IMG/VR virus record: IMGVR_UViG_3300044731_002410
Reading direction: 5' to 3' (one strand)
DNA: 64,000 bases
DNA from: an uncultured virus (IMG/VR IMGVR_UViG_3300044731_002410)
Lineage: Duplodnaviria; Heunggongvirae; Uroviricota; Caudoviricetes
A program made the translations under genes and the position numbers. The notes beneath the pieces are model-generated. The model saw only the letters and a list, made by a program, of their open reading frames with translations. It had not been told where the DNA came from and ran no database searches. Positions 18,401-48,650 of this stretch are shown one piece after another (position 1 is the first letter of the stretch; each line of letters begins with the position of its first letter).

Positions 18401-19941
18401 CCATTATTTAGTGCTTTGAGTGTGCCTGGCTGCTCGGACGAAATGCGCGCATTCACCGAGCCATCAAGATTATGTGAGGCTTGCACGGCATCGGCTGAAA
18501 CGACGGCATACCGAAAAGGTACCCTTTGGCCATCAGCCATCACTGCGATATCGGATTTACCAAAGTGGTGCTCTGGAATCGCGCTTAGATCGTCGCCTTG
18601 AGCAAAGACCATCGGTGCACCAGAGTCAGGTGTGCGGCTTGGTCCTAAGCGCAGGTAATCGGGTGCTCTTGCGATCGATTGCATTTGAGCCACTGATGCA
18701 AGCCGCGATCGATCTCGATTTTGTAGATTGGAATCGGCGCTCGAAATTTGATCAGCTTGGCTTTGATCCGTTGTACGTTGATCAGCTGTACGTTGGTTAG
18801 CTGCACTTTGATCAGCGCTTAAAGCTACGGCATCACTTTCGATGACCTGACTTGGTAGAACGCTCTGATCATTGTTACGCGGCGTCTGATTGATCGGATC
18901 TTGTCGGCTTGCGTTAATTGAAGGGTTCTGCGGCTCGGCACTCGGTTGCGGTGCATTGACCGGTGCATAAGTTGGTTCAGCGTCTAGAGGCCTCTGATTA
19001 GCTTGCCTCACCGACCACAGCGCTTGCGGCACACTTTGCGATAAGCCTGCAGCCGATTCAAGCACGGCATCGTAAATATCAGGCTTACCGGTTGCGGCAA
19101 GCTCACCGAAGTACTCGCCCGTGCCCTCGCCTACGGTTTCAAGCGCAACACCGGTGCCAAGCTGAGCCGCACGCATTCCAATCCCAGGCGCCGATCGACC
19201 TGCAGCAGCGCTTGCTCGATTAAAGGTTTTTGCGAGCTTGCCGCCAAGCCCGAGTGTGGCTGCATCGATACCTGTAATCACACCGCCTTTGATGGCACCT
19301 TCTCGAAGTGCGTCAGAGCGTTCACTTTCTGTGAACCCATCAGCAGCTTTATCGATCGCTTTAGAGCCTGTTTCAAGGGCTGTATTGCCAAGAAACATGC
19401 CACCGAGAAAGCCAGCCGTACCAAGTACGGGGACTGCAATGGGTGCGAATGGGCCCGTTAGTGCGCCAAGTGCCGCACCGCCTTTAGCCCCTGCAATCCC
19501 AGTACCTAGCGAGACGGCAGTATTGGGTAGCTGACTTGCTAAAAACTGTGCACTGCCAGATTTGTTATCCAGCATGGCAGCGCCCACATTACGTATTGCT
19601 GAGAGCACGCCTGGCTCCGTATCAAGTGCTTTGCGTCTGGCAATCTCATCCATCAGAGCGCGCTGTGCCGAAGGCTGCTCAGTGACGGCGGCTCGGTCAA
19701 CGCCCGCCGTTTGCTCAACAGCGGCGCGATCATTTAAGGCGGTATCAAGCGATGCTGAAAGTGCTCGGCCCGTGCTCTTAGCACCTTGCCAAACCGCAGT
19801 CCCCAGATCGCTTACTTCGTCGGTAAAGCTGCGCGTCTTTGGCGCAATCGAAATGCCCGCTTCAGCGAAAAGATCCCGGCCCCCTTGCGCATCGCGGCGA
19901 GAAAGTGTGATTCCGGCTTCTTGAAAGAGATCGCGAGGCAT
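12415..19941 (-). CDS. Large polyvalent virion/ejection protein (ParB-like, JAB/RadC, zincin HExxH, C-terminal LPD38-like)
   Basis: LQNRDRSR...YAVVSAD...NNGR; HNHPSG..S..D; VHELLHH; NLTVNFNRKG..LYAFFNASIQG; NQDWTGRPIY. Confidence 0.8.
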   Translation of the reverse strand: MPRDLFQEAGITLSRRDAQGGRDLFAEAGISIAPKTRSFTDEVSDLGTAVWQGAKSTGRALSASLDTALNDRAAVEQTAGVDRAAVTEQPSAQRALMDEIARRKALDTEPGVLSAIRNVGAAMLDNKSGSAQFLASQLPNTAVSLGTGIAGAKGGAALGALTGPFAPIAVPVLGTAGFLGGMFLGNTALETGSKAIDKAADGFTESERSDALREGAIKGGVITGIDAATLGLGGKLAKTFNRASAAAGRSAPGIGMRAAQLGTGVALETVGEGTGEYFGELAATGKPDIYDAVLESAAGLSQSVPQALWSVRQANQRPLDAEPTYAPVNAPQPSAEPQNPSINASRQDPINQTPRNNDQSVLPSQVIESDAVALSADQSAANQRTADQRTTDQSQADQISSADSNLQNRDRSRLASVAQMQSIARAPDYLRLGPSRTPDSGAPMVFAQGDDLSAIPEHHFGKSDIAVMADGQRVPFRYAVVSADAVQASHNLDGSVNARISSEQPGTLKALNNGRVAGLRGAYEQGKAAIYQAELVSDAANHGIDPAAIALTPNPVLVRVYSEQSNTANMAQKSQGQGLGMSPVELARQDAQLMDSSVLSAYQEGDVSSADNRDFVRAFVGKLAGSGQDIATLMTAQGHLSPAGRTRIQAALAQAAFDDSDLVAELFDSMDTDIKGIGEALKQVAGQWANMRDSARVGVIDPQQDVTKDLMDAVGLIKRARQERRSLYELLRQPDLQTGQPPSESVQAFVKVFYQGEFLTRPVAKDKAAAKLKAFVGQAMHTKPEPGFFGDAPSALDNLQSITQPAEDQPGVSEEESVYKVHQPDGPNQALAGFDLSPESVTADLFPDSLSGQQDLPVAVKGRVKRSSKRSDNDPKSGSTQAGAEKSGEPRPSIEPRLSLRPDPYLPGIYHYSSQLVQVGTRSLPVDRIQNWTDAASALAALGEYAVEHFDVLITDQVGKPLAVIGSFKGAFNQASVYPNTLLAEALRIEGAAKAWGVHNHPSGISTLSRADQQLSRAISSTFDASSVKWQGVAAIGVEPGTNDQGRFEAVDDKGNPLEGALITGKTPVSVPIVERTILRQNALMPAITSPDSAMSIMRSIAPPDTPGILFTDSQQRVSAFVPIKPEEANSLRIDQRFDRLVNAASEAGAGAAIIANPDAAIDFDGQSNLATALARLDIRLLDVIDVASRTSAVNQGHMPRDQGTVNDLSRKALERRMRHLFDGYEEKPTPKVQAARRLQGLITKLDDGSISPQDFEVRIRRLAGELDAVVQTKANKRAVKPRQRGEQQLRERLIRAQRQGDLEPETVAFAFWALDQNPALATNLAISIQTPKSDGTAGQYNPTAELMRLFKGADARETAVHELLHHAERMMPKAMQEGIRQAWAQAYTRALEVAGSEERQALSLVPLALAGDRSAHAQLQAAMLDGPLNYADHYQLVNPSEYWAVNASALLARRFDAKDRIFKQIAVWLSEMIEKVKGILGLASDAPLLKALKQILDPSKTSGESEYFLSSRMLMDFSASEITFPNTTLNDLDRSGGKKPQGNSEEKTSTPEPNQPNTPVLKSPRSNPPTPKLPNRWQALKTRLANLISPQAIDALLYEFQDKYIDLKRIRDRIQALGGVITDLNDAYLGEELFHKRVAFRTQQFLSHELKPLLQSLHDAGIALKEFERYLHARHAPEANAAMAKRNPSEAELEAYREEAAANVASLERALQAAKSSGTSAQAIEESLAHAYERQQRWAMAQAFKGTEEERLALSGMSDAEAAQVIAGIDKASLPSFEAAAALVDAINEKTLTLLDAYGLMDAETLAAWRQAYDYYVPLHRDEAHPTSTAHAVGLGFSVKGAAARQRVGSKEQVTNILGHIAQQRETALTRGEKDRVTKKLYLMAAQNPDSSLWAVDKPPTARVLDPMTNTVRTIVDPNYRNLPYVVMLRIGGKDAAITFNERNPEALRLAQSIKNLDVGDLHAAISLIAKGTRWFASINTQYNPIFGIINFARDLQSGLLNLSTTAIAGKEKEVAANVWPALKAIYRTEREGVSSASQDQPAAHWANRWQQLQAAGGTTGYRDLFADAKERADALARELAALDRGAASKAAHAVLDWLSDYNEAMENAVRLSAFDVALNSGLSQERAASLAKNLTVNFNRKGRQSREIGALYAFFNASIQGTARMAQTLKGPLGRKIMLGGVMLGAVNTLLAMAIMGGGDDGDDAWEKIPEFVKEKNLIIPISTTEYLSLPLPLGFHFLPNIGRLSVEMMASGRDHTPAKQLGKLLQVLLDAFNPLGGTQSISQVVTPTVADPAVALAQNQDWTGRPIYRENHNPLNPQPGTALVKDSATPWSKVIAEALNRISGGTAYQPGAWSPTPDQIDYVIGQLTGGVGREISKLAQTISAPFTGDELPAYKIPLLGRLYGSTQGVSAESELFYKNIKRLNQIEHEYKGRMKAGEDAESFRKQEPLVDQIGLGNQAESAVSKLRRLRREEQLRADPGWQDRVKVIDQQIEEVMREVNRGVGK

Positions 19942-25669: not shown

Positions 25670-25834
25670 TTGAACGATTCCAACCCTTCTAACCAAACGC
25701 CAAATGATGCCAAGCTCATTCGCGAAGCCAAAAAGAGACGCCGCAGGCGCAACTTTTTGATCTATCTTGGATTCGAATTCGTAGTGCTTATCATCGTGAT
25801 TTGGGATGACATCGCACGCTCGCTAGGTCGATAA
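25670..25834 (+). CDS. Small single-TM membrane protein (54 aa, below ORF-track cutoff)
   Basis: TTG start; AKKRRRRR followed by NFLIYLGFEFVVLIIVIW. Confidence 0.45.
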   Translation: MNDSNPSNQTPNDAKLIREAKKRRRRRNFLIYLGFEFVVLIIVIWDDIARSLGR

Positions 25835-26317
25835 CGCCTCGCCACCTGGTTGCACTGGCCAAACTACCGCATAAGGATCACCCTGCATCGGTACATCACG
25901 AAGTGCTTGCCTGTATTGCTGCCAGGCGTTGAATCGCTCAACCCCTAATCGGTCGATGGCAGACATCGTATCGGTCCAGTCTGAGCTTTTAAGCTTTTCA
26001 TCGCGCACCTGGCGCACCATCCACCAAGCAAGCGCTTCATCCTGCACCCAAGCCTTTTGCCCATAATCAAACCGCATCATGGGACCTGGCGCATCGCCTT
26101 TATCGATCACCTCACCGTCTTGCACATAGGACGAAAAGGCAACGATGGGCCGATCGCAGTCAAGTCTTAGAAGGCCCGCAGGCGTTGGTTGATCCTCACA
26201 CTGCGCACTTGTGCCCACAAAGGCAAAGCGAATACATCCCTGATCATCATAAAAAACAACACTTTGGGGTTGCTGCGATCTTTCTTTGGTCGTTACGTCA
26301 TTCATAGCATCGCTCAT
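25823..26317 (-). CDS. Tail fibre assembly chaperone
   Basis: RDEKLKSSDWT...AWQQYRQALRDVP...VVWP; ATGA overlap with the upstream gene. Confidence 0.8.
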   Translation of the reverse strand: MSDAMNDVTTKERSQQPQSVVFYDDQGCIRFAFVGTSAQCEDQPTPAGLLRLDCDRPIVAFSSYVQDGEVIDKGDAPGPMMRFDYGQKAWVQDEALAWWMVRQVRDEKLKSSDWTDTMSAIDRLGVERFNAWQQYRQALRDVPMQGDPYAVVWPVQPGGEALST

Positions 26318-28533
26318 CGCATCGCTCCTATGGCAAGCAAGATGATGTCGTAGTATGCGCCGTTGGCCGCACCCCCTGCGAAGGTAATCGGGGTGTTGGC
26401 GGGCGGCGTGAAGTGCGCCACGCACACCAGTTGCTGACTAGTATTGGGGTTATAACTTGCCAGCCGGTAGAGCCAGGTAAATTGGCCATTAAGCGAATAG
26501 CCAATCCCTGCGTCTGTTAACGGCAACGGACCAATAACACCTGATGACCACTTCATGGCCATCCATAGCATCACAGGGGATGACACCGGTAAATTCATAT
26601 CAAGGCTTGTAAAGACCACCTGCGTGCCAGAGGCCATCACGGGAATCGTGACTGCATTACCCTTGATGCGAAGCGTATCAATGGCAGCATCGGCAATCTT
26701 GGCCGTTGTAATACTCGCCTGACCAATCCTTGCTGCATCAAGTGTTCCCGAGCCAATCACCGCAGCACTTAGGTTTGCAATCTTGGCATCAAGCGAACCC
26801 GCTGAGATCCGATCGGCACTGAGGGTGCCTGCATTGATCTTATCGGCACTAAGGCTTGCGATCTTCGCATTATCAATGGCAGCATCAGCGATTTTTGCAT
26901 TGGTGATCGTGCCGTTCTTAATATAGCTACTCTCGATATAAACACCAGCAGGAACCGAAACGCCATTAATGGTCTGCGCGCTGGTTGTTACGCTAAAAGG
27001 AACGATGGGGGGAAGCGCTGGTCCGTCTGGATTGGCAATTGAGAAGCGATCGGCGCGAACAATAAAGTCTGAAACCGTTGCCCCATTCACTTCCGTTGAT
27101 GCAAGCCCAAAGCCTGCCACATACCCATTGGCATCGATCTTAACGGTGTACTGACCCTTAAGACCTGTGATGCTTGAGGCAGAAGCCGATAACGATTGCT
27201 CAACCGTAACGCCACTGCCCCCTGCAGTATTAAGCCTTGCCGTGACTGCGCTGTAGTCCTGTGCTGCTGCAGCAGCCGCGTTTGCAGCATGGGTTGCAGA
27301 AACCGATGCTTGATTTTTATAGCTAGATGCGTTGGCTTCACTCGTTGAGGCTTGCGTTGCTGCATTGTTTGCACTGATCGCCGATTGCCCAGCTTCTGTC
27401 GCTTTGGTGCTTGCACTACTTGCCGATGTAGCTGCAGCGCTTGCAGAAAGCGCTGCGTTATCGCGTGCTGATTGGGACGCGACCTTGGCAGCGTTGGCAG
27501 CAGTCGATGCCACTTCGGCACTCGTGGCATAACTTGAAGCATTCGAGGCTGCGCTTGCTGCCGCGTTAGCTGAGCCCCCAGCATTACTTGCCGCTTGGGA
27601 AGCAGTCGTTGCACTTATTGCTGCTTGGGAGGCAGCGCCTTCAGCGCTTGTTGCAGATTGAGAAGCGGCTGTCGCTGAGGTTGATGCACTGCCTGCTGCA
27701 CTTTGTGCGTTTGTGTTGGCAAGTTCAGCAGCGTCTTTAGCCGTTTGAGCACCGCTTGCAGCTAAAAGTGAAGCGGTTTTTGCTGCAATGGCATCAGCAG
27801 CACTGGCACTTGCAAGCGCCGCGTTGGTGGCTGATGCGGTGGTATCGCCATAGGTCGCAAGCAACCCATTCACACGCGTAACAAGCCCTGAGGTTGGATC
27901 ATCAATCAAATCAATGCGTTGGCCTAGACTTTGAAACAACTCAGTTTCTGTAATCGAGCCTTGCAGCACTTCAAGTAACGCTTGAACATCTTCACCCGTG
28001 CGCGCTTGAAGCCCGTTCGTGCTCCCTGCTGGTTGCGACTGCACCCCATCAACACTTTCCCATGTGATCCAAAGCCGCCAGGTCGTTGCCGGGTTCGAAG
28101 CAAGTGCAAAGACAGCACCCGAAAATTGAGAAAGCTCTTTGGCTTGCGCAAAACTCGGCAAAGGGTCATTGTCATGGACGGCAATGCCAAAAAGATGGGT
28201 GCGCAAATGCCCATGACCTTGGGTGTAGGTTGGAAGGTGATGCTCAACCAACACATGGCTTATGGCAGCACTTACCTTAAAGCCAGTCGGTATAGGTGGT
28301 GGTGAGCGATCTAGGGGTTCTTGGGTGGGTTTTAATTCAATGGGGGGACTATCTTTGGCTGACCACTGAAAACCTTTTTTAAGCGTCACAATCCCTGCAT
28401 CAACAAGATCACGAATCGTAAGTCCCCGATCAAGCGGATCGCCTTGCCTTCCCAAATAAGTCATCAACGTCTCACGCACACGCTGCGAAAAATTAGGTGC
28501 TGTGGTTGCGGGCAAATCCGTACGTTGATTCAT
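26314..28533 (-). CDS. Tail fibre / tip protein (Ala-Ser coiled region, DUF1983-like)
   Basis: QYTVKIDANGYVAGFGL..FIVRADRFSI and ITNAKIADAAI repeats. Confidence 0.8.
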   Translation of the reverse strand: MNQRTDLPATTAPNFSQRVRETLMTYLGRQGDPLDRGLTIRDLVDAGIVTLKKGFQWSAKDSPPIELKPTQEPLDRSPPPIPTGFKVSAAISHVLVEHHLPTYTQGHGHLRTHLFGIAVHDNDPLPSFAQAKELSQFSGAVFALASNPATTWRLWITWESVDGVQSQPAGSTNGLQARTGEDVQALLEVLQGSITETELFQSLGQRIDLIDDPTSGLVTRVNGLLATYGDTTASATNAALASASAADAIAAKTASLLAASGAQTAKDAAELANTNAQSAAGSASTSATAASQSATSAEGAASQAAISATTASQAASNAGGSANAAASAASNASSYATSAEVASTAANAAKVASQSARDNAALSASAAATSASSASTKATEAGQSAISANNAATQASTSEANASSYKNQASVSATHAANAAAAAAQDYSAVTARLNTAGGSGVTVEQSLSASASSITGLKGQYTVKIDANGYVAGFGLASTEVNGATVSDFIVRADRFSIANPDGPALPPIVPFSVTTSAQTINGVSVPAGVYIESSYIKNGTITNAKIADAAIDNAKIASLSADKINAGTLSADRISAGSLDAKIANLSAAVIGSGTLDAARIGQASITTAKIADAAIDTLRIKGNAVTIPVMASGTQVVFTSLDMNLPVSSPVMLWMAMKWSSGVIGPLPLTDAGIGYSLNGQFTWLYRLASYNPNTSQQLVCVAHFTPPANTPITFAGGAANGAYYDIILLAIGAMR

Positions 28534-28547
28534 AGGTCGGTACCTTG

Positions 28548-30242
28548 CTAGACCTGAGCGAGCTCTTCCACACTTGAAGCAAGTGCAATCGACTGCACGG
28601 GCGCTGTCCCTTCAAGTTCTACTTGCCAATGCTGGGCCATAAAGCCTGCAGGTAGTCGTTGTGCCTCTGGGCCAGGTACCGCGACGGTGTAGCGTAGCGA
28701 CGTTGGGGTAGGTGCTGAAACACGGCTGCCAAGGCTTTGCGTCAAACGTTGGATCGTTGCTGAAGGCAGATCAAGCGCATCGACCTTTATCGTTACCGGA
28801 TACGCATCGGCTTGTACTTCCAGGCATGAAAAGCTAATGGGCTGCGGCGCTCGAAACACTTTGGAGCGAAAGCGATAAGTCAGTGGCGTTTGGCTGCCAT
28901 CAAAGCGTTGAACATTGACGCCTGAAAGCCCATAGAGTTGATCTTGAATCGGATCGACATAAAGGGCGCTAAAAGCTAGATCAAAAAAGTACACGCCCGT
29001 ACTTGATGCTGGATCGATTAAAAAGCCTCGACGACCCGAGCCGTCATCAAAGCTGCCCAGATAGAGTCCCTCGTAGTAAGCACCCATGATGCTTGCTGGC
29101 TTTAATGCCTGCCAATCAGCGCGCGTTAAAACGCCTGCTGTTAAAAGCCTCGCACCCCCGCTCCCAAGCCAACATAGACCATCGTCTGAAGCCCAGGCAA
29201 CCCCTGAGCCCATACTGACGACCGAGCGTGGCGCAATACAGGCTTGAGGCAGATCAATGAGTTGTTGATCAAGCGAATCAGGACTTGACCCAGAGACCAC
29301 AAGGGGCCTGCCATTGGTAAGCACCACGAGTTGCTGACCAAAAACACCCAGTGCAACGGGCTTTGAATCCGGTGGAATCACATCGTAGTTTTCTGGCCAT
29401 GCATAAGCGACATAGGGTTCACAAAAGCGAATGCGATTGCCCGATATCCCTGCAAGCATGCCGTTCCAGAGTGCACTTAAGTGCGTTAGGTTCTCGGGCG
29501 GCATCGCCCAAGCAACCGTGGGGCAGACTTCGCCAAGATCGCGCAAATCATCGGTGGTGCTTTGCGTGCCGATTGCAATCTCACGCAAAAAGAAAAAGTC
29601 CGTTGCACCACTTGATCCGGTTGCTGTGCGATAAATCCGCATGCGATTAATTTGGTAGTTTCCTGCAGGCGGTAGTGCAAAGCCAGAAAGGGTTGCGTGG
29701 GCGTCACTAGGTCGGTTGTTCTCCGTACTAACGGGGCTTGGCGCACTCTCCCAACCCCAATCGTTCACATAGGTATAAACGTAATAGCTTGAAGTAAGCT
29801 CCCCTGTTCCACCTGCTAGCGTTGCAACGTTAAGGGCCGCAGTGGGAGCCGGTAGTCCAAGTGGTCTTGATGCGATTGGATAGTTTGACGTTGGTGAAGG
29901 TGCACTACCAAGGCCCATCACGTTATCGGTCACTTTCGGTGCCCCATCACCGCTATAGTAAGTGCGCTCGGTGGTATCGCCTGTATCAAAGCCTCGCACG
30001 GCATGCACAACACTCGCCCAAGAGAGCCAATAGGTGCTGTCTGATGCAACATCGCGTCCCATGCGATACATGCTTTGGCGTCCAATCGGAACGTTCGCTA
30101 CCGTTTGTGGTGCGTTCCAACTTCTTAGATCACCACGGCCTGGACGTTGATTGCGACTAAGCGTGCCTTGATGCTCGGCAAGTAAGCTTGGGTGAAGGGC
30201 TTGCACTTCACCGCTAAAGCCTGCAATCCGTATGAGGGCCAT
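28548..30242 (-). CDS. Tail nozzle/stabilisation protein
   Basis: YVYTYVNDWGWESAPSP, FCEPY.AYAWP; podovirus tail position. Confidence 0.7.
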   Translation of the reverse strand: MALIRIAGFSGEVQALHPSLLAEHQGTLSRNQRPGRGDLRSWNAPQTVANVPIGRQSMYRMGRDVASDSTYWLSWASVVHAVRGFDTGDTTERTYYSGDGAPKVTDNVMGLGSAPSPTSNYPIASRPLGLPAPTAALNVATLAGGTGELTSSYYVYTYVNDWGWESAPSPVSTENNRPSDAHATLSGFALPPAGNYQINRMRIYRTATGSSGATDFFFLREIAIGTQSTTDDLRDLGEVCPTVAWAMPPENLTHLSALWNGMLAGISGNRIRFCEPYVAYAWPENYDVIPPDSKPVALGVFGQQLVVLTNGRPLVVSGSSPDSLDQQLIDLPQACIAPRSVVSMGSGVAWASDDGLCWLGSGGARLLTAGVLTRADWQALKPASIMGAYYEGLYLGSFDDGSGRRGFLIDPASSTGVYFFDLAFSALYVDPIQDQLYGLSGVNVQRFDGSQTPLTYRFRSKVFRAPQPISFSCLEVQADAYPVTIKVDALDLPSATIQRLTQSLGSRVSAPTPTSLRYTVAVPGPEAQRLPAGFMAQHWQVELEGTAPVQSIALASSVEELAQV

Positions 30243-30276
30243 GATTAGGCTGCTGAGCCAGGCACGGTTTGATAAT

Positions 30277-31734
30277 TCATACCAGTGCAAGATGCTTGGC
30301 TGCAGACGGCAAGCCTGGTCTTAACCCATGACCCATCAGCAGTGCGACGTAGGAGAAGCCATGGAACATCCCAAAGCGTCGCTGCATCAGGTCACGAAAG
30401 GCGGCATCCTCAATCAGCGCCTCATCGTTACCTTCAAAGGCTTTGATAACGCGCTCAAGTGCTTCGGGCCTGCTCATGCGGCCATAGTCACGCCAAAAGG
30501 CACTGTCCGTGCGAGCACTTAATAGATAGTGGCTTTGCACAAAATCGAGCACATCGTCGTGTTGCTCACGCATCTCCGCGTTATAGCGATCCCGCAAGGC
30601 ATCGGGCGCCACATGGGCTGCATGAAGGTATTGCGCTAAAAGCATCGCAGCGTAATGACCCAACGCTATGGCCGTGCTTTCGATGGGCTCGCAAAAAAAG
30701 CCACTCAAACCGATGGCCACCACATTGTGATGCCACAGCTTGGGCCGAAAGCCCGTCTTGAAGCGCACAAGGCGCGGCTCGATCGCTTCGGGCGCATAGC
30801 CCCAGCGTCGGGTGAGGTGCGAGATGAAATCGGCTTGCGCTTTCTCCGTATCCACATAGCGGCTTGCATGGATATAGCCCGTGCCGATGCGGCTTTGAAG
30901 CGGAATATGAAACACCCAACCCTCAGGCAAGCCCTGGCAGTGGGTCAGATTCATGCGCTGTCTGGCGGGGTCCACGAAGGGGAGTTGCACCACCCAGGCC
31001 TGATCGACAAGGAGGCGATCAGCCACCGAGACCCATGGTGATTGCACCGCTTGAGCCAGTACGCCTGCAAAGCCTGTGCAATCGATGTAAAGATCAGCGC
31101 AAAGCGCATGACCCGCATCGATAAGAATGCTTGAAACCGCCCCACGATCATCGCAGTGCACCTGAGCAATCGTTGCATCAAGCACCTGAACGTTCTCGCG
31201 CGCAAGCACCTCTTGTTTAAGTAGCGCGGCGTACTTCAAGGCATCGATGTGAAAGGCACCGCCTCCGCCATGCGCAGCCACCCGGTAGCGCTCAAACCAG
31301 GTGCTTCGCTCGATAAAGCCCCCTTCAAGCTTGGCCCCTGCCCAGGTGTGCTCGGCAGCAAAGGCCCACTGATCGGGCGCCTGCGCAAGCGCCCCTGCGC
31401 GAAGGGCCGCCCCCAATCGGATCCGATCGATATCGGCAGCATCTAAAAAGGGGTGTAACCAGCGTGCGCCCTTTTCATAGAAATCCTCAAACGCAATCCC
31501 CAGTTTCACCGTGGCATCGACCGCGCGCGCCCAGGCCTCGGTTTGCAGGCTTGGCAGTGCCATCGCCTTATGGGCCAGGTGTAAGTGGGGAAGCGTACTT
31601 TCACCCACGCCAATGCTCGGGATCGTGCTTGGGTCGAGCACCGTGACATGCAGTGCGGGGTTGGCTGAGAGGATCGCCGCAGTCGACCAACCGGCCGTAC
31701 CACCGCCTGCAATGAGCACATGGCGCCTTACCAT
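30277..31734 (-). CDS. Tryptophan halogenase family flavin-dependent enzyme
   Basis: GGGTAGW, IGVGEST, DATVKLGI (catalytic Lys position), IDCTGF, GWVFHIPL..RIGTG, FCEPIESTA. Confidence 0.88.
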   Translation of the reverse strand: MVRRHVLIAGGGTAGWSTAAILSANPALHVTVLDPSTIPSIGVGESTLPHLHLAHKAMALPSLQTEAWARAVDATVKLGIAFEDFYEKGARWLHPFLDAADIDRIRLGAALRAGALAQAPDQWAFAAEHTWAGAKLEGGFIERSTWFERYRVAAHGGGGAFHIDALKYAALLKQEVLARENVQVLDATIAQVHCDDRGAVSSILIDAGHALCADLYIDCTGFAGVLAQAVQSPWVSVADRLLVDQAWVVQLPFVDPARQRMNLTHCQGLPEGWVFHIPLQSRIGTGYIHASRYVDTEKAQADFISHLTRRWGYAPEAIEPRLVRFKTGFRPKLWHHNVVAIGLSGFFCEPIESTAIALGHYAAMLLAQYLHAAHVAPDALRDRYNAEMREQHDDVLDFVQSHYLLSARTDSAFWRDYGRMSRPEALERVIKAFEGNDEALIEDAAFRDLMQRRFGMFHGFSYVALLMGHGLRPGLPSAAKHLALV

Positions 31735-32150
31735 TGGATCGCCTCACGCGCCCTTGCACGGGCCTCGCTCACGTCCTGGGGCACCGGCACGCCGCACTCA
31801 AGGGCGCGGATCACATACCAGTCGGTACTGGCCAGATAGTCGATGAGCTGTCGGCTTTGCGCATAGCGTCGGCTGCGCGCTTCGCTTACATCAAGGTTAT
31901 TCAAAAAATCAAGCACCTCAGCGATTTGTGCCTCATTCATGATGACTTCCACGCCTGCGTGCACATAGCTGCGTACGTTCATGGAAAACTGCATCGCATC
32001 GTAGTCAAAGGAGAACACTGGACGCGTGGGCCCGGCAATATGCCGCCCCTCACGCAGGATCGAGACATTGGCCCGAGGGTTGGCCGGTACGATCATCATC
32101 GGTGGATCGGGCGCTTTGTCGTGGGCTATTTCGTGTGTAACGTCGGTCAT
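31728..32150 (-). CDS. Tail fibre assembly-like protein
   Basis: YLASTDWYVIR..E.G.PVP.DV...RA.AR motif. Confidence 0.7.
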   Translation of the reverse strand: MTDVTHEIAHDKAPDPPMMIVPANPRANVSILREGRHIAGPTRPVFSFDYDAMQFSMNVRSYVHAGVEVIMNEAQIAEVLDFLNNLDVSEARSRRYAQSRQLIDYLASTDWYVIRALECGVPVPQDVSEARARAREAIQW

Positions 32151-32245
32151 GGTTTCGCTTTAGAGAGGTTGGTTACAGGTGTTGGTTAACAGCGCTTGGC
32201 CTTAGCGTTTGCGGCATTGTCAAACTTTGTAATAGTCCTGATGCC

Positions 32246-32707
32246 TCAGTAGTAGTAAGCCCAGTACGAGGTATCGATCCAGCGGTAGTAGCCGGTTTCT
32301 ACCCAATAGGGTGCCGGATCGTAATAAACGGTGTAATCATTATCGTTATACCACTGCCACAGATTGGGGTAGCCATAAAAACCGGTCACTTGAAGCCAGC
32401 CCTGGTAGCCCATCGGTGAGGGCGCTTGGAAGTAAGGTTCAAGCATGCCCCACATTTCAGCGACACCCCAGACTTGTACAGCCTCACCCCCACCGCTCGT
32501 ATCCCACCACCCGGTCTTGCGCCCATAGAGGGTTTGGTAGTAACCCGGCGGGTCATACCAGTAGCCTTGACTCACATACTGGTTATAGCCCGATGAAACC
32601 CACACCCGCTCCCAAAGCCTCGTGCCACCCGGTCGATTTAAGCGGTTAAACGCAGATCCGTTGCCCAGAACATAGGTAACACTGGCCAGATTGATTGACT
32701 GGGAGGG
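32246..32707 (-). CDS. Trp/Tyr-rich putative tail-tip protein (start uncertain)
   Basis: 12 W and 22 Y in the last 119 aa; frame is open up to the TAG at 32717-32719; no ATG near the 5' end, ACG-CCC-TCC-CAG starts at 32707. Confidence 0.6.
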   Translation of the reverse strand, partial: PSQSINLASVTYVLGNGSAFNRLNRPGGTRLWERVWVSSGYNQYVSQGYWYDPPGYYQTLYGRKTGWWDTSGGGEAVQVWGVAEMWGMLEPYFQAPSPMGYQGWLQVTGFYGYPNLWQWYNDNDYTVYYDPAPYWVETGYYRWIDTSYWAYYY

Positions 32708-32716
32708 CGTACGCGT

Positions 32717-33142
32717 CTACCAGTTGATCGTGAGCGTTGAGCCGCTGACTGAAAACGTTGCGCCCACCGGACCTTGTGCGCCTTGCGCACCTTGTGGGCC
32801 ACGAATCTGCGCAACCACGGCAGCCGGGATCGGCTGCGAACCATTGAGCCAGGCAGCGCCTGCGTTATTCACCGCCGTGATCTGATTCGCGCCTGCGCTG
32901 TTGACGGCCGTAATCTGGTTAATGCCCGCTGCATTGACCGCATTAACCTTTGCAGTCCCGGCATCATTAACGGAAGAAACTTGTGAAGTCCCTGCCGCAT
33001 TCACGGCCGATACATTGGCATTACCAATAGAGGACTCCGAAGCTTTGGCAAGCAGCAAGAGCTCGGTAGCAGAAGTTGCACCCGAGACGCCGTTTAATCG
33101 CGCCTGAAGCGTATTGCTATAGGTTGTAAAGTCAACGGGCAT
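32717..33142 (-). CDS. Short tail fibre protein with 11-aa repeats and collagen-like triplets
   Basis: VNAAG-type 11-aa repeats; GPQGAQGAQGPVG. Confidence 0.65.
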   Translation of the reverse strand: MPVDFTTYSNTLQARLNGVSGATSATELLLLAKASESSIGNANVSAVNAAGTSQVSSVNDAGTAKVNAVNAAGINQITAVNSAGANQITAVNNAGAAWLNGSQPIPAAVVAQIRGPQGAQGAQGPVGATFSVSGSTLTINW

Positions 33143-33150: not shown

Positions 33151-33501
33151 TCAAAGTCCAGCAAGTGCAAGCGCCTGGGTTTCAGCAAGCTGCGCTTGAA
33201 GGGAAGCAATGGTTGCGCTATCAGCAAAGCCTTGCGGGTTTGCAGCGCTATAGGGTGTGTAGCCAAGCGCTTGGGTGATATTGCTTGATGTGAGTTCTGC
33301 TCGAATCGCAGCGCTTGATTTGTTTTCAACCGCACTTAAGCCCAGATTGCTGCGAGCACTTGTTGGATGGGTGAGATCGGCAAGGTTTGCACTGGCAATA
33401 AGCTTTTGAGCAAGCTCGCCATTCAGTCCAACAAAGTTGGCATCAAGCTCTGCATTGGTAAGCGGTGCCCCTTTAGCCTGGCGTGTCGTAATGCTTGCCA
33501 T
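33151..33501 (-). CDS. Phage tail fibre-related protein
   Basis: TRQAKGAPLTNAELDANF; ARSNLGL; ALGYTP. Confidence 0.7.
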   Translation of the reverse strand: MASITTRQAKGAPLTNAELDANFVGLNGELAQKLIASANLADLTHPTSARSNLGLSAVENKSSAAIRAELTSSNITQALGYTPYSAANPQGFADSATIASLQAQLAETQALALAGL

Positions 33502-33513
33502 CGCCTGCGCCCA

Positions 33514-33972
33514 TCAAACGGCACTAACCGTGATGGTCCAAGTCACCGTCATGGTGTCATCGGCTGCCTTATTCACCACGGCAAACACCGTTCGGCAAAG
33601 CATATCGCCACCGGTTGCAGCGTTAAATAAGCCCGCTTCAGTCACAGCGCCTGTGGCATCACCCGCTTCAAAACTTGCCACATACACAACCTTTTCATTA
33701 TTGGTGCCCGTAATCGTTGTGGAATCCAGTGCCTCACGAGCACCGAGCATGGCAATCAGATCGGTTTGGGCGCTAGCCGCTGCAGTCGTTCCCGCCCCCA
33801 GTGCCATATGGCTTATGGCAGGTTTTGCTGTACCCACCATGCGCGAGATGATGTAGGCAAGCCCCGCGTTGACTACAAGATTTTCAATCGTTCGGTCTTC
33901 TTTAACCAAACCATCTGCGCCTCGCACGCACAAGTTAACAGTGCCTTTAAGCTTTAAGCGTTCGTTGATCAT
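33514..33972 (-). CDS. Phage tail structural protein
   Basis: NLVVNAG...MALGAG...TEAGLFNA...VNKAADD..TVTWTI. Confidence 0.7.
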   Translation of the reverse strand: MINERLKLKGTVNLCVRGADGLVKEDRTIENLVVNAGLAYIISRMVGTAKPAISHMALGAGTTAAASAQTDLIAMLGAREALDSTTITGTNNEKVVYVASFEAGDATGAVTEAGLFNAATGGDMLCRTVFAVVNKAADDTMTVTWTITVSAV

Positions 33973-36024: not shown

Positions 36025-36711
36025 TTATGCAGCCTGCTGATTGGGATTACCCACCGATTGGGGGGCAACCGCTACCGTGGCTTTAATTTCAATGCCAAGC
36101 GCATTAGCAAAAGCGGCATAGCGTGCCTGCGCCCGGGCTTCGTTGCCTGCGTATTGACTGTCTTTGGTATAGGCTCTGTAGAGCACATAGTCTTGCAAGG
36201 CGTTGCTATAAATATCAGGAACACTGATGGCACCTGAGACTGCTGAATAATCAGTTCCTGCTGCAGGCTCAGCAATATCGGTGGGAAGTGCTGAATACAC
36301 TAAATCAACCGATGCCCCAGCGCTTTGCGCAGGCGGATAGACATAAAACACTTTGGGGTCGCGCGGATCAAACATAAAGTGCACGATCTCAGTCACCCCT
36401 GAAAGATTGTGCCAACCGGGTGATTGCGCATCGAGGATTTCTCGTGCACACATGCGAATGGCACGCTTGGTGCCTGCACTATTTCGGACCACATCGATGA
36501 GCTTGGCACCATTAGCTGGCAGGCTTTGTTTGGTACCTGCAGACAGTGTCAGACTTGCATTAGTCACCATCGCATCGGGTCTGTGCACAATAATTTCGCG
36601 CTGACCGTCATTTAAATAGCGCACGAGCTCTGCCACAGGCCATCGGATGGAGGTCGTATCTTGAAGCGTTTCAACCACGCGTCTGATTAAGGCTTGGGCT
36701 GCAATGCTCAT
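36025..36711 (-). CDS. Head-tail adaptor protein
   Basis: LQD...RW...EL..YLNDGQREI...RPDA; ALQDYVLYRAY.KD. Confidence 0.7.
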   Translation of the reverse strand: MSIAAQALIRRVVETLQDTTSIRWPVAELVRYLNDGQREIIVHRPDAMVTNASLTLSAGTKQSLPANGAKLIDVVRNSAGTKRAIRMCAREILDAQSPGWHNLSGVTEIVHFMFDPRDPKVFYVYPPAQSAGASVDLVYSALPTDIAEPAAGTDYSAVSGAISVPDIYSNALQDYVLYRAYTKDSQYAGNEARAQARYAAFANALGIEIKATVAVAPQSVGNPNQQAA

Positions 36712-38150: not shown

Positions 38151-39269
38151 TTATCGATTGGCCGCTGCAGTGTCGAGTGAGAAAAGCCCAAAGTCCTGTG
38201 CCCCAACGCCATCGTGGGTGAAGGTGACTTTCTTAATCCCAAAGATTGAGCTCGTGGTGATCACGACCTTATCGCCGTTATCACGCGTCTCCTCATGCCA
38301 ATCAAAACGCATGTTGGTGCCTGGCGAACCAAAGGCAACGACGGCTGCCTGCGAACCCATAAAAAGTGCTCGGGCCGCTTCAACATTGCCTGCAGCACCG
38401 GCATTACCAAAGCGAATGACGTTGCGATGCGAATGCAAAATCACACCGCGATACATACCCAACGAACCCTTAAAGAGCGGATTATTTTTACCCTCAGCAG
38501 CAGCGGCCGCCTTTTGAATATCGAGCCACTGACCGGTTTGCACATTGGCTCTTAGGTCATCTTCTTGAAAGGTATGCATCACACACACAAAGGTTTCATG
38601 CCCATCGATCTTGCAAGGCTGTAACACTGGAATGTTGGTTGCGCCCCCGCCTTGGCTATCTGCTTTGGTCTTTGCTCGGTCGATTAAGCGCAGATCAAAG
38701 GTATCGGCAGCATCAAGATTGGCAAAGCTTGTGGCATCACCCCCGTAAAGCGCATGCTGCGCATCGGGTGAAACAAGACCGTTATTGGCCCGTCCCGCAT
38801 AGCCAAGTGGAAGGAGAAAATTAGGGTTCACACCGCGTGCACCCGATAAATAGATGAAAAGCAACTCATCCATCAAACGCGCCCACCAGCTTGATTGCTG
38901 CCGCTTGGCTTTCTCGCGAAGATCATGAAGCGTTCGCTTTCGCGTCATCCGCCCGCCGGTATTCACACCGCACCGTGCCTGATCGATGTAAATCGTATCG
39001 GTATAGAACTTTTGACCTTCTTCTTTACCCTCAAGAATGTCTTCGCCTTCAACCGGTGCCATTTTGAGCTCAGCGAGTAAGTCATAGCTGATTTGCTCCC
39101 CCGCATCCGATTCAAGATCGGTGAGGATTTGAATCGGTACCTCGGCTTCTGCGCCACGCGCCATAAAGCGCTGGTTAAAGTAACTTTTATGCGAGGTGTC
39201 GTAGGCCAACATCCCACTCCACTTCTTAATCGCTTTGGCGTCATTCACACCAATGATCGTTCGCGCCAT
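38151..39269 (-). CDS. Major capsid protein, N4-gp56/DUF4043 family
   Basis: DLESDAGEQISYDL, EGEDILEGKEE, IDQAR..V..GG.MT.KRT.HDLR, NPLFKGSLG, ALFMGSQA, QDFG. Confidence 0.9.
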   Translation of the reverse strand: MARTIIGVNDAKAIKKWSGMLAYDTSHKSYFNQRFMARGAEAEVPIQILTDLESDAGEQISYDLLAELKMAPVEGEDILEGKEEGQKFYTDTIYIDQARCGVNTGGRMTRKRTLHDLREKAKRQQSSWWARLMDELLFIYLSGARGVNPNFLLPLGYAGRANNGLVSPDAQHALYGGDATSFANLDAADTFDLRLIDRAKTKADSQGGGATNIPVLQPCKIDGHETFVCVMHTFQEDDLRANVQTGQWLDIQKAAAAAEGKNNPLFKGSLGMYRGVILHSHRNVIRFGNAGAAGNVEAARALFMGSQAAVVAFGSPGTNMRFDWHEETRDNGDKVVITTSSIFGIKKVTFTHDGVGAQDFGLFSLDTAAANR

Positions 39270-39351
39270 GCTCACTCCCCATGTAAGGCGACTCATTAAG
39301 GCTTCACGAGAGCACGTGCGCTTCGTGAACTAATTACTATGGGAGCTAGCC

Positions 39352-44608: not shown

Positions 44609-44829
44609 AACAGTTCATCACCATTGGCTTGAGATGCTCGAGCGTTATGGTTTGCCGTGTGCATCTGCCACCAGCGATAAAGCAAAAAACCAATTTGAAG
44701 CACCAGGTACAAAAGCGTTGCCCAAAGAATCAGATCGTTCAGTGGCACGCCTGCAATCGTGGCGCCGGCAACGGTTACGGGCGGTGCAGCACGAAGCGCT
44801 TCGGCCGTAAATTCAGATCGCTGGCTCAT
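44605..44829 (-). CDS. Holin
   Basis: AAPPVTV.G....G..LND...ATLLYLVLQIG; immediately upstream of the endolysin. Confidence 0.75.
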   Translation of the reverse strand: MSQRSEFTAEALRAAPPVTVAGATIAGVPLNDLILWATLLYLVLQIGFLLYRWWQMHTANHNARASQANGDELL

Positions 44830-47291
44830 GATGATGTCTTTTGTTGTGGTGATGTCTTTTGCTGTGGCTTAGGCTTAGGCTTTGCCTTTTCCGCTTTGGG
44901 CTTTTCTTGCGCTTTCTCGCCGTGTCCGCCCTCACCTTCTTTCAGCCGCTCAGAAAGCTCATCAAGTTGCGCTTGAAGCTTGGCAAGCTTTTCGTCTGAT
45001 ACCGCTTGAATCTGCGCAACACGCTCCTTGGAATCTGCATCAATGCGCGCGACTTCAAGTTTGGTGTTGGCATCTTCTCGAATCTGTAGCGTTCGACTGG
45101 CAAGATCCATTTGCGCTTTACGTAATGCCTCTGATACGCGATCAATCTCAGTGGCAGCTTCTGCCTTTATGGTTTCGATGTCTTGCATGAGCGCCTCTTC
45201 GCGCATCGCTACTTGCTGCGCATCGAGACCTTGTGCTTGCAGGGTTGCCCCCATCGCTGCTACTTCGGCTTCAAGCTTTGCCGCTTTGGCATTGGTCTCA
45301 CGCACCTTGGCGCGTTGCTCATCAAGTGCAGCAAGCGCCATCTGACGCTGTAACTCGAGAGCCTGGGCTTGTTGCATGGCCTGCGCTTGGGCTTGTGCTT
45401 CTTCCTCAGCACTCGGGGGCTTACTTGGGTCGCGTTCGCCCGTGAGCTTTCTAAACTGATTGGCGATCTCATCCTTATTGGGAAGATCAGAAAAGTCCAT
45501 GGCAATGGTCATCACCCGTAGACCAATCTCTGGTGGAAAGCGTGCGGCAAGCTGATTTAAGTTTTCAAACATCACCTGACGCAACGTGCCTGCGTAGTCT
45601 TGCTCACTCACCACAAAATCAGCCATCGAGGCTGTGATGTCATTCAGTACGCGCACCGAACCATCGGCTTGCACTTCAGGGGTGTTGACCTTGACCCATT
45701 CGATGGCGTTCTTGGCACCCGTAAGGCGTATGACTTTGGCATCGGTGTACCACTGCTCAATAAGGCTTAGCTGCTTTTCACCTTGCACTTGGGTGGCTAA
45801 GCGCAAATTATCAAAGGGCTCAGTGGTCACCACACTACCCTGCAGTTGCCTTGCTTTGATGGCCTCACCCGATACGGCATTGGTTTGCCTGCCCATATTC
45901 TCTTGGGCAACACCCGCCGATTTTTGAATCGACGTTGCCGCAAGCTGCATCATCTCGATTTGCCCATTGGCAGCTTCGGTATCGCGCCTGATTTCAAGCT
46001 CACGGCCAGGCTTTTTAATGATCACCCCGTCGGGGCGATCCACTTCATCGCGCATCACATCCCAGTCATCGACTGCACCCTCATCGGCAATGACTTGGTT
46101 GGTGTTAAGCATAAAGAGCGCCTTCGAAGCGCGCTTATTTAAGTCTTGCTGCACATCGCGCACACGCCGAATAACGCCATAGGGCAGACGATCACGGCTT
46201 TTGCGATAGCACCAAATCGGCGTTAACGTGAAGCGGTTGTGCCGATAAGGGCTTACCTGGTGGGCTAAGAGCTTTGATGGGGTGAAAACGGCCAGATGCA
46301 CGCGCATCATGACGCGTTCTATAATGTGGCAGCTGGCCAGATCGAGTGTGTGTTGTAGGACGGTATCGCGTGGGTGAAGGATTGAACCTTTCCACGGGCC
46401 TTCGGCAACCACCTTGACCTTGGCGGGCGCCCGGTACTGGGCTTCAATGAGTTTTATGCGCCGTCTTTTGGCATCGGCTAACTCCCCCACCCCTAAAGCG
46501 TAGAGCGTTCCAGATCGCACATGCGATGGATCCTGCTGGCTTTGCCAGTTTTCTTCTTCCCAGCCATCGCTATCTGAGTGCGCAGCCTCTTCAATCGCTT
46601 GCGCAATCACATCGCTTCGGTCTGGGAACATCAAGCGCGCGACATCCTCATCCACCCAGCGCCAGCGAAACAAATACCTGGCGTCTGACAAATCAAGCTC
46701 ATCACTTGAAGCATCCCAAAGCACATGGCGCCAGTCTTCGTAGCGCGAATACAAAATATCTTGCGTGGGGTCATCACGTGCCCCATCGTCCATCCAACCC
46801 ACACCGGCCTTAATCGCATCGGCAAATGCCCTTGAGCGCAAAAAGCTCACCCGGTTGATGTCTGAGACGTACTTTAAAAGCTTCGTTTTAACGTCAGCCG
46901 CTTCAACATCGTCCTCGGACCTAGGCAACACCCGCCAATCCACGCGTGAGCGGCGCTCAGTACCGATAAGCCAATCAACCATGGGTGCCACTTCGTTATA
47001 AACCAGTGGCATTTGGCCGCGATCACGCAAAATCGCTGCATCTTGCGCATCCCATTGCAAGTTATCGTAAAAATCACAATCCATGGCCATCTCGAGCCGA
47101 TTGGCAGCCTGGCGCTCTTTTTCAAAGTAATACCACTGCAAGAGCTGCCGCAAGATGGCCCGCGAGCCTTCCGATTCAAGCGGATGACTTGATGGTGCTG
47201 TTTCAAGCCGATCAGACGAAGCGCTAAGGGCTTGAAAGTACGCGTCACCCGATGCCCGACCTCGCCTTGGACGAACAGCAAACTCAGCCAT
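44826..47291 (-). CDS. Portal protein (P22-like)
   Basis: DFYDNLQW, YGVIRRVRDVQQDLNKR.SK, AVSGEAIKARQ.QG, DLPNKDEI, long C-terminal coil. Confidence 0.88.
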   Translation of the reverse strand: MAEFAVRPRRGRASGDAYFQALSASSDRLETAPSSHPLESEGSRAILRQLLQWYYFEKERQAANRLEMAMDCDFYDNLQWDAQDAAILRDRGQMPLVYNEVAPMVDWLIGTERRSRVDWRVLPRSEDDVEAADVKTKLLKYVSDINRVSFLRSRAFADAIKAGVGWMDDGARDDPTQDILYSRYEDWRHVLWDASSDELDLSDARYLFRWRWVDEDVARLMFPDRSDVIAQAIEEAAHSDSDGWEEENWQSQQDPSHVRSGTLYALGVGELADAKRRRIKLIEAQYRAPAKVKVVAEGPWKGSILHPRDTVLQHTLDLASCHIIERVMMRVHLAVFTPSKLLAHQVSPYRHNRFTLTPIWCYRKSRDRLPYGVIRRVRDVQQDLNKRASKALFMLNTNQVIADEGAVDDWDVMRDEVDRPDGVIIKKPGRELEIRRDTEAANGQIEMMQLAATSIQKSAGVAQENMGRQTNAVSGEAIKARQLQGSVVTTEPFDNLRLATQVQGEKQLSLIEQWYTDAKVIRLTGAKNAIEWVKVNTPEVQADGSVRVLNDITASMADFVVSEQDYAGTLRQVMFENLNQLAARFPPEIGLRVMTIAMDFSDLPNKDEIANQFRKLTGERDPSKPPSAEEEAQAQAQAMQQAQALELQRQMALAALDEQRAKVRETNAKAAKLEAEVAAMGATLQAQGLDAQQVAMREEALMQDIETIKAEAATEIDRVSEALRKAQMDLASRTLQIREDANTKLEVARIDADSKERVAQIQAVSDEKLAKLQAQLDELSERLKEGEGGHGEKAQEKPKAEKAKPKPKPQQKTSPQQKTSS

Positions 47292-47697
47292 AGCTTGCGC
47301 CTTGTTGCTCTTGGCGAATATCGGTCTGAGCAATCAGCTCGCCATCAGCGCGCAACTGCACCTCGCCAACACTTGGACCAAACGCTGGTGTGGGTGCTGA
47401 AGGCATGCGAATGAGATCACCAAGGCCCTCATGAATGATGCTGGCAATCCGAACCCAATTGCGCTTTGAAGGCTCAACACCTAAAACCTCGCAGGCCTTA
47501 ACGCACTGCGCAGCTAGCACGCTTGCATCGTCATAGCGATACGCAGCCGACTCACAAACAACGAACCAGGCAGCGTTTTTACGACGCGCAGGCAAGAGCA
47601 CAAGCGCTCGCTCATCATTCACCCAGGTGTAGATGGCCAGCAAATCGCCATGTCGGCGCACCTTATGCGCTTTGCGAAGATCGAGGGATACGGGCAT
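47284..47697 (-). CDS. Conserved phage hypothetical protein upstream of portal
   Basis: TWVNDERALVL.P...I..GL.DLI.MP; overlaps the portal start. Confidence 0.6.
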   Translation of the reverse strand: MPVSLDLRKAHKVRRHGDLLAIYTWVNDERALVLLPARRKNAAWFVVCESAAYRYDDASVLAAQCVKACEVLGVEPSKRNWVRIASIIHEGLGDLIRMPSAPTPAFGPSVGEVQLRADGELIAQTDIRQEQQGASYG

Positions 47698-47743: not shown

Positions 47744-47998
47744 CGCGCACTTAATGCAAGCCCCGTGGGACTGCTAAAAGAAGCGACCGAGAAAAGTTAG
47801 ACAATCTAAAACCTTGATACCATGACAGTCAAGTATTCAAACCGCCACTGCAATAACTATGCATCGCAAGACCATGCTTAAGCAAGAGATCCTGAGGGCG
47901 CTCGCATCGATCGAAGGGCTACGGCCGTTGAGGCATCTTCGGTGCCCAGGCTTACAAACCCTGACTCCGCGGGCAGCTTAGCTAGAACGTTAGGTAGC

Positions 47999-48628: not shown

Positions 48629-48650
48629 TGCCGACACCGAGGCACACTAA

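Follow-up and report, generated by a model that had tools for sequence, protein, structure and literature searches.

A flavin-dependent halogenase encoded with a Trp/Tyr-rich protein and an assembly-like protein in an exchangeable tail-fibre cassette of a freshwater phage

The 64,000-nucleotide (nt) stretch analysed here, from an uncultured Caudoviricetes virus (IMG/VR IMGVR_UViG_3300044731_002410; hereafter the window), carries the structural genes of a podophage-like genome on its minus strand. Between a Gp80-like fibre gene and the gene of a phrog_511 protein, four co-oriented genes make up a 2.9-kb cassette (33142-30277, minus strand) that encodes a short fibre protein (p141), a Trp/Tyr-rich protein (WY), an assembly-like protein (p140) and a flavin-dependent halogenase.

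32717..33142, minus strand: p141, the first cassette gene, a short collagen-like tail-fibre protein of 141 amino acids (aa), delimited as an open reading frame (ORF)
32246..32716, minus strand: WY in its conserved reading frame, 156 aa with 13 Trp and 23 Tyr, ending in ...DTSYWAYYY
31728..32150, minus strand: p140, tail-fibre-assembly-like, 140 aa (phrog_27919, E 4e-12; phrog_4912, E 9.5e-4)
30277..31734, minus strand: flavin-dependent halogenase, the last cassette gene, 485 aa (PF04820 Trp_halogenase)
30317..33142, minus strand: the exchange unit, delimited by similarity breakpoints in nucleotide comparison and by contig ends

The halogenase gene is intact and conserved. The original prediction, made from the letters of the window, had recognized a full gene with GxGxxG, a catalytic Lys, WxFxIP and FxEPxES, and the protein indeed matches PF04820 over residues 6-474 (E 1.5e-97; 327.8 bits, with the cut-off at 21) and phrog_2928 (E 5.5e-94) with all of these motifs present. 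The GxGxxG motif that binds flavin adenine dinucleotide (FAD) is GGGTAG at residues 10-15, and K77 occupies the position of the catalytic lysine, where it is aligned to the Lys of Thal. The WxWxIP motif reads WVFHIP at 273-278 (its second Trp is Phe in four and Trp in five of the nine members of the clade described below), and the Fx.Px.Sx motif reads FCEPIES at 347-353 and contains Glu349. K77, E349, G10, G12, W273 and P278 are invariant in 74 of 74 aligned viral halogenases. We take the lysine to be K79 in PrnA and RebH numbering and the glutamate to be E346 in PrnA numbering. The best solved relative is 9luq (E 1e-63), followed by Thal, RebH, VirX1 (E 4e-54) and PrnA.

The start codon of the halogenase gene (31734-31732) overlaps the p140 stop by 7 nt, in line with the predicted overlap with a tail-chaperone-like ORF, and overlaps between cassette genes are also found in four related loci (L006, L007, L008 and L010). 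As predicted, no flavin reductase family is visible among the 46 window ORFs scanned with Pfam, in which small ORFs are partly covered. This absence is no problem, because two-component halogenases can draw on host reductases. Five longer proteins matched the halogenase as possible fusions, all at ≤30% identity and none of this clade. The 875-aa bacterial protein P0157 naturally joins a distant halogenase domain (30% identity) to a peptide-recognition module, labelled by its source as a TOMM precursor leader-peptide-binding protein.

WY is the most aromatic protein in the data set. Its annotated ORF (32246..32605, minus strand, GTG start at 32605) encodes 119 aa with 12 Trp and 22 Tyr, as had been counted from the sequence, and its Trp plus Tyr fraction of 0.286 ranks first among 2043 putative genes of at least 80 aa from the window and 161 viral loci (median 0.055, 99th percentile 0.13). 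The conserved frame begins further upstream, with an ATG start codon in L004 and L001, GTG in L002 and ACG (32710) in the window. This start codon lies 9 nt past the TAG stop of p141 and in frame with it. In the window, the 36 conserved N-terminal residues are thus either made through a nonstandard start, reinitiation or readthrough, or they have been lost and GTG 32605 is used.

No Pfam or PHROG family matches WY. The WY family comprises 27 representative clusters among 1.84 billion proteins, and all 44 collected members are connected by BLASTP (E<1e-3). Almost all of them contain 6-18 Trp, and the C-terminus is in most cases an aromatic motif of the DTSYWAYYY type or a variant ending in ...YFY or ...DFF. 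Some members have 9-20 Cys, which may fit an extracellular protein. The AF2 model of WY (predicted local distance difference test score, pLDDT, 64) is all-beta and confident at residues 30-65 and 130-156 only, with the variable middle unmodelled. The best hits of this fold were at Z 2.5 among 48,161 PDB chains (VIA-align) and at E 0.11 in BFVD (Foldseek); since the model is only partly confident, these non-matches are uninformative on the novelty of the fold. No usable match was found in the ESM Atlas, and two scans of 185,579 prokaryote genomes with WY patterns yielded no relatives. Comparison with the aromatic small proteins of two other loci, L089 and L094, gave a probability of 1% (hhalign), which lends no support to homology. 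Source bin labels name an 'Oxalobacteraceae bacterium' for one WY cluster and an 'Actinobacteria bacterium' for one halogenase fragment; as indicators of the host they are contradictory and were not used. WY is a putative fibre-tip protein and the candidate substrate of the halogenase.

p140 is encoded directly upstream of the halogenase in every linked locus. Its N-terminal beta domain is specific to the clade; the C-terminal region is helical and has the pattern TDWYVxR...P.P. The family phrog_4912, annotated as 'tail fiber assembly', is matched by all eight p140 family members (best E 4.6e-6). Given this match and its position after the fibre genes, p140 is best described as tail-fibre-assembly-like. 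No PF16778 (Phage_tail_APC) or other Pfam domain was detected at E≤1 in the window protein or at E≤0.1 in six relatives, and comparison with the PF16778 chaperone encoded elsewhere in the window gave a probability of 0.4% (hhalign). The AF2 model of p140 (pLDDT 87) has six strands followed by four helices, and its best PDB hit in Foldseek is at E 0.42.

p141 combines VNxAG-type repeats of 11 residues with a short GxQ run resembling collagen, and it ends in the conserved ...ATFSVSGSTLTINW. This end motif is common to the fibre genes that precede WY in six loci (L002, L004, L005, L006, L009 and L010), and the L006 counterpart matches PF01391 Collagen (E 1.7e-6). In p141, the N-terminal half is phage backbone sequence, 92% identical in nt to L005 as far as 32891; what has been exchanged is the C-terminal half. 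The ratios of nonsynonymous to synonymous substitution rates (dN/dS) are 0.036 for p141, 0.083 for WY and 0.131 for the halogenase against L004 and 0.057 for p140 against L002, indicating purifying selection on all four cassette genes.

Related, weaker p140-like modules without a halogenase occur in L094 (5498-7021) and L089 (916-1814). Both have a fibre gene with an S74-like C-terminus, a Tyr-rich small protein starting with MALxSSGAIS and the p140-like gene, in this order. In L094, the position that belongs to the halogenase in the window is taken by a prolyl-hydroxylase-type 2-oxoglutarate (2OG)-Fe(II) oxygenase (PF13640, E 1e-9), and in L089, lysis genes follow the p140-like gene.

WY, p140 and the halogenase are present together or not at all, and their sequences have diverged in step. 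Hidden Markov models (HMMs) of p140 and WY were run against all ORFs of at least 40 aa in 82 viral halogenase loci; they match 10 of 10 loci of this clade (L001-L010) and nothing in the other 72 at E≤0.01. The HMMs were built with members from L001-L010, and the informative part is therefore the lack of a match elsewhere. In 14 of 14 loci that could be assessed (L001-L010, L086, L087, L167 and L172), WY and p140 immediately precede the halogenase, which is thus always encoded two genes downstream of a ribosomally made, Trp-bearing candidate substrate. The predicted co-occurrence of halogenases with W/Y-rich ORFs thus stands for this clade, across several unrelated backbones, and fails for the remaining viral halogenase loci.

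Further scans gave the same picture. A scan for p140 relatives returned 80 loci and newly added the contigs L086, L087 and L092; all ten high-scoring loci have WY and nine have the halogenase, the tenth ending before the halogenase position. All six viral loci found in WY-pattern scans, which used narrower alignments than the full family alignment, are halogenase contigs. On two metagenome contigs, L167 and L172, the halogenases are 51% and 40% identical to that of the window, again with WY and p140 directly upstream. Among 31 loci with relatives of the 580-aa backbone protein encoded downstream, screened by tblastn, the triad is found in 3 and none of its genes in 28. Identities to the window fall in parallel, from 79 through 45 and 37 to 32% for the halogenase, 67, 40, 35 and 33% for p140, and 76, 40, 27 and 22% for WY. 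The invariant core comprises these three genes, because the genes upstream of WY in L007 and L008 differ from the p141 type.

The four genes are exchanged as one unit. Three loci with other backbones (L002, L001 and L166) align to the window only over 33142..30317, with 96%, 93% and 90% nt identity; they have different genes upstream of the cassette and lysis genes downstream. Conversely, L005 shares the window backbone (capsid 100% and phrog_511 protein 91% identical in aa, ~92% nt identity) and loses similarity between 32891 and 30258. The gap holds a diverged version of the same four genes (halogenase 45%, p140 38-40% and WY ~40% identity). Contigs from run X15 span 30317-33142 with loose ends exactly at both positions, loose contig ends at 30242 occur in runs X16 and X19, and DNA run X9 has a depth of ~15 on the cassette and 30-60 on the flanks. 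The coordinates mark a recombination module, because the shared cassette on other backbones, the shared backbone with another cassette and the contig ends all agree, and they strongly support the exchangeable module that had been proposed. In X16 and X9 contigs, 69 nt of the WY-p140 intergenic region (32172-32242) are swapped for 24 other letters; this spacer change is population variation.

The block was also expected to be richer in GC than its flanks, and the cassette has a GC content of 0.571 as opposed to 0.520 in the rest of the window. This deviation spans all four genes, not the halogenase alone. Inside the cassette, promoter and terminator signals do not exceed chance (3 promoter-like sites, 10 expected). 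The gene that follows the cassette is that of the phrog_511 protein in the window, L004 and L005, and that of a 1458-aa fibre in L010; lysis genes follow in L001, L002 and L006, and other genes again in L007, L008 and L009.

The linked halogenases form a phage-specific clade. In a tree of 74 viral sequences (quick search, LG+G4, with long-branch warnings), all nine WY/p140-linked halogenases fall on one branch with a stem of 1.21 and a value of 100 in the Shimodaira-Hasegawa-like approximate likelihood ratio test (SH-aLRT). Path lengths inside the clade are 2-3 substitutions per site. The clade has no residues in about 45 C-terminal alignment columns that the other 65 viral halogenases occupy; its members measure 461-513 aa, compared with a median of 518 aa for the other viral halogenases. 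Position 94 is His in all nine clade members and Tyr in all 65 others, and the clade deviates from these at a dozen otherwise conserved positions.

The alignment of the window halogenase with Thal ends at Thal residue 489 of 534. The Thal stretch ...YYGNFEAEF... pairs with ...AAFRDLMQRRF... in the phmmer alignment and is not conserved; we take the YY..E of this stretch to hold the amino-acid moiety of free tryptophan. The full-length C-terminal region that caps the substrate in halogenases of free L-tryptophan is not present in the clade. Based on the C-terminal shortening, His94, the dozen other changes and the unconserved Thal stretch, the substrate site appears to be opened or altered, and the native substrate is probably not free tryptophan.

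The 53 halogenase clusters closest to the window protein in a large protein database (E≤1e-82) all lie on contigs of ≤95 kb, and chromosome-sized contigs appear only among the more distant matches. A metagenome scan with a halogenase profile found at least three further clade members. In some clade halogenases (L006, 9986-11527; P0052; P0053), ~40 aa are added at the C-terminus; this extension contains four cysteine pairs of the CxxC type and resembles a zinc ribbon.

The surrounding genome places the cassette in a tail module, as had been predicted: the Gp80-like, phrog_511, Phage_Tail_Tip, PF16778 and SU10 adaptor genes are all on the minus strand.

50927-52225, minus strand: terminase (head and packaging)
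44826-47333, minus strand: portal (head and packaging)
38151-39296, minus strand: major capsid protein (head and packaging)
36025-36711, minus strand: SU10-type adaptor (Pfam/PHROG match)
33514..33972, minus strand: Gp80-like fibre protein, 152 aa, backbone upstream of the cassette (PF23140, E 2e-4)
33151..33501, minus strand: 116-aa protein, backbone upstream of the cassette (ORF)
28548-30290, minus strand: phrog_511 protein, 580 aa, downstream backbone, with a probable true start at 30242
26314-28533, minus strand: Phage_Tail_Tip fibre, 739 aa, downstream backbone (Pfam match)
25823-26425, minus strand: PF16778 tail assembly chaperone, 200 aa, downstream backbone (also phrog_4912, E 4.7e-13)

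The region of the Gp80-like and 116-aa genes (33151..33972) also matches phrog_5417 and phrog_4176 'tail fiber protein', and the versions of both genes in L003, L004 and L005 are 95-100% identical to the window. A 29-kb viral contig (G001, which is also L003) is the closest record, and the INPHARED collection contains no close or near-identical phage. Lake-water metagenomes contain 31-mers of the cassette, and its carrier is a freshwater phage.

Elsewhere in the window, a defence island (2613-12359) adjoins the phage genes. It encodes AbiLi/AbiLii (2613-4561, E 2e-76 and 3e-25), a complete Type I restriction-modification system (HsdM 5195-6763, HsdS 6753-8135, HsdR 8132-11320) and a protein with an N-terminus of the HNH-type endonuclease-effector kind (11514-12359). 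Between the portal and terminase genes, the opposite strand holds a second island of high GC content (0.57-0.60; 47942-50819), with genes for two GNAT acetyltransferases (47942-48553 and 48651-49229) and a pair of ORFs that match no family. A 2508-aa ORF (12415-19941, minus strand) has matches to phrog_14770 (score 1158) and to further giant phage proteins whose function is unknown. At 62554-63741, an ImmA/IrrE-like peptidase M78 protein (a weak match, E 9.5e-5) lies beside an HTH_31 regulator; the pair suggests a temperate lifestyle, and no integrase was found among the window ORFs scanned.

How the cassette might work can be pictured as follows. The halogenase would be a working enzyme dedicated to its own tail-fibre cassette, expressed late and translationally coupled to the fibre gene, WY and p140. 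Once WY is made, p140 would hold or fold it, and the halogenase, supplied with oxygen, halide and reduced flavin made by the host, would add chlorine or bromine to aromatic side chains in WY or the WY-fibre complex, Trp indoles being the likeliest targets. Exposed indoles or phenols would be modified while p140 assists folding or earlier, and before the tip becomes fixed in the fibre, and the assembled receptor-binding tip would then carry halogenated residues. That the enzyme is catalytically active, which substrate it acts on, when it does so and what, if anything, this does to adsorption are all inferred from the genes. Since the linkage is strict, old and all-or-none across backbones, the frames overlap, separate transcription signals are missing and the catalytic residues are intact, the simplest functional unit is an enzyme with its substrate and a helper.

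That the halogenase modifies the cassette's own tip protein during assembly is the reading we favour, at a little under an even chance. More tentatively, the clade as a whole may install Cl or Br on Trp, possibly Tyr, of a fibre-tip protein that is held by a dedicated assembly protein. With similar reserve, the trio may be viewed as comparable to the systems that make RiPPs (peptides produced by ribosomes and modified after translation), with a substrate, an adaptor and an enzyme serving virion assembly. There is precedent for such chemistry in flavin halogenases that modify Trp of ribosomal peptides: ChlH is described as able to act even on a Trp of a folded enzyme (bioRxiv 10.1101/2025.01.12.632611), and SrpI as acting on a structured proteusin precursor (PMC10858898). 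The oxygenase found in the halogenase slot of L094 belongs to another protein-tailoring enzyme family. Among 30 other viral halogenase loci (from L011-L082), seven adjoin fibre-like genes (PF21722 glycine-rich domain, Laminin_G_3, Peptidase_S74, Gp34_trimer and PF16778). The L094 oxygenase, these fibre-like neighbours and the 2OG oxygenases near 18 of the 30 loci suggest that phages more widely place tailoring enzymes next to fibre genes. In L024, an Erv1/Alr thiol oxidase is encoded two genes upstream of the halogenase.

Several observations weigh against halogenation of the tip. What suggests it is confined to the gene linkage, the intact active site and the truncated substrate-capping region. 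The triad has a single origin on the tree, and therefore the 14 loci are not 14 independent events; a passenger captured once and then inherited in a block-recombining cassette would give the same linkage. Other viral halogenases reside mostly in islands of 2OG-Fe(II) oxygenases, which lie within two genes of the halogenase in 18 of the 30 other loci, and one report reads such islands as small-molecule pathways (PMC2938197). Fresh water is poor in halide. Many WY tryptophans fall in the confidently modelled core and would be inaccessible once the protein is folded, the WY fold matched nothing, its membership of the virion is putative, and its frame in the window opens with ACG, not ATG or GTG. 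Contigs from RNA libraries cover the cassette, which is no proof of transcription.

The most serious rival sees the halogenase as a co-travelling accessory gene that a fibre cassette acquired at its end on one occasion and that has since been inherited and transferred with it. Its product would act on a small aromatic metabolite in infected cells, for instance an indole, a derivative of tryptophan or a signal or antibiotic precursor. This is how phage halogenases have been viewed in print, in two papers that describe their role as metabolic and interpret oxygenase islands as secondary-metabolite pathways (PMC2938197 and PMC7824862); two others present prnA as a gene of unknown role (PMC2984593 and PMC3037559). 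The single origin of the triad and cassette-wise recombination, which would keep a passenger linked, fit this explanation, as do the elevated GC content and the ends of the cassette or module at lysis genes in L001, L002, L006 and L089, tail-fibre operon ends being classic insertion sites. So do the frequent oxygenase neighbours of other viral halogenases, the second halogenase present in 6 of the 30 loci and the small aromatics that VirX1 and BrvH-type enzymes are described as accepting. However, the linkage outlasts divergence to 22-37% identity in every assessable locus and has survived transfer into at least five unrelated gene neighbourhoods without one observed loss, and the 28 backbone relatives without the halogenase also lack WY and p140. 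The start of the gene overlaps a structural gene, and a promoter or terminator of its own was not found. In the window the halogenase lies between structural genes, not at an operon end, and Pfam and PHROG scans of the window found no other biosynthetic genes alongside it. On balance we regard a metabolic passenger as less likely than halogenation of the tip, though it has to be taken seriously.

Two further explanations seem less probable still. The halogenase could act on a cytoplasmic precursor of the host surface structure that the tip recognizes, blocking superinfection or the sticking of progeny to debris, and would then be exchanged together with the matching tip. Receptor-modifying genes are linked to tail specificity in other phages, the temperate-type regulators would suit such a role, and the co-variation of the enzyme with receptor-binding genes would be explained. 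Yet known surface precursors include no aromatic halogenase substrate, the gene sits inside a late structural operon away from the immunity genes, and the extreme Trp richness of WY would be left unexplained. This explanation is improbable. Least probable is that the halogenase-fold protein is itself a component of the virion or of its assembly, for example a scaffold or a tip-associated protein, with catalysis secondary or lost. Its coupled position between structural genes would fit, and p140-type assembly proteins can remain on fibres in some phages. Against this, the strict conservation of catalytic and FAD-binding residues in all 74 viral sequences argues for catalysis, and an enzyme that needs reduced flavin would be unable to work outside the cell.

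Comparison with known systems sets the favoured reading, halogenation of the cassette's own tip protein, in context. Flavin halogenases and their viral members are a known family, and phage halogenases have been known since the first cyanophage genomes. The cyanophage and pelagiphage enzymes (PrnA-like; VirX1, PDB 6qgm) share the Pfam family and the catalytic Lys and Glu with the window protein, whose relatives in 65 phage records are ≤31% identical. They form a separate deep clade, however, with ~45 more C-terminal residues, Tyr in place of His94 and mostly 2OG-Fe(II) oxygenases rather than WY or p140 as neighbours. VirX1 is reportedly an iodinase active on small aromatics. The bacterial halogenases of free tryptophan (Thal, RebH, PrnA and PyrH, with PDB 9luq as the best match) align with the window protein over nearly its full length (E 1e-63 to 1e-44); they share the FAD module, K77, E349 and the HPF-type motif (H94, F96) with it, whereas the window protein is shorter, diverges in the Thal stretch noted above and is not part of a biosynthetic cluster.

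ChlH, SrpI and MibH follow the same proposed logic, an enzyme encoded next to its ribosomal Trp-bearing substrate. They show no special closeness in sequence, PDB 5uao being the weakest of 30 solved matches (E 1.4e-36), and the substrate in the phage would be a virion structural protein of 140-320 aa, not a natural-product precursor. We take PDB 5uao to be MibH. The gene order of fibre, small distal protein and assembly protein is that of the T4 gp37/gp38, Mu S/U and lambda Stf/Tfa modules, which are likewise exchanged as host-range cassettes; unlike in these modules, PF16778 is not detected in p140. To our knowledge, none of them includes a tailoring enzyme. The Syn9-type dioxygenase/halogenase arrays (Iyer et al. 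2010, PMC2938197) also cluster oxidative tailoring enzymes in phage genomes, but that work proposes them as makers of secondary metabolites, whereas here a single halogenase is tied to one protein family.

We found no proposal of halogenated phage tail proteins in the open-access literature, subscription journals being outside this coverage. As far as that literature shows, what is new is a phage-specific, C-terminally shortened halogenase clade, its obligatory partnership with an undescribed Trp/Tyr-rich family and an assembly-like protein, and the transfer of a halogenase as part of a fibre cassette.

We know of no phage-encoded halogenase whose natural substrate has been established, and this clade offers a concrete, genetically linked candidate. 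Should WY not be halogenated, the cassette would still be a clean example of a fibre module that ferries an accessory enzyme across unrelated phages. If WY is halogenated, it would be the first enzymatically halogenated virion protein, adding a new post-translational chemistry to virion assembly and host recognition, and biocatalysis would gain a halogenase that evolved to act on protein. The widespread halogenase and oxygenase genes beside the fibre genes of aquatic phages would then be read as virion-tailoring rather than metabolic. The candidates for such tailoring in related loci include halogenases, prolyl-hydroxylase-type 2OG oxygenases and an Erv1-type thiol oxidase, and aquatic phages may thus diversify their receptor-binding proteins chemically by means of oxidative tailoring enzymes.

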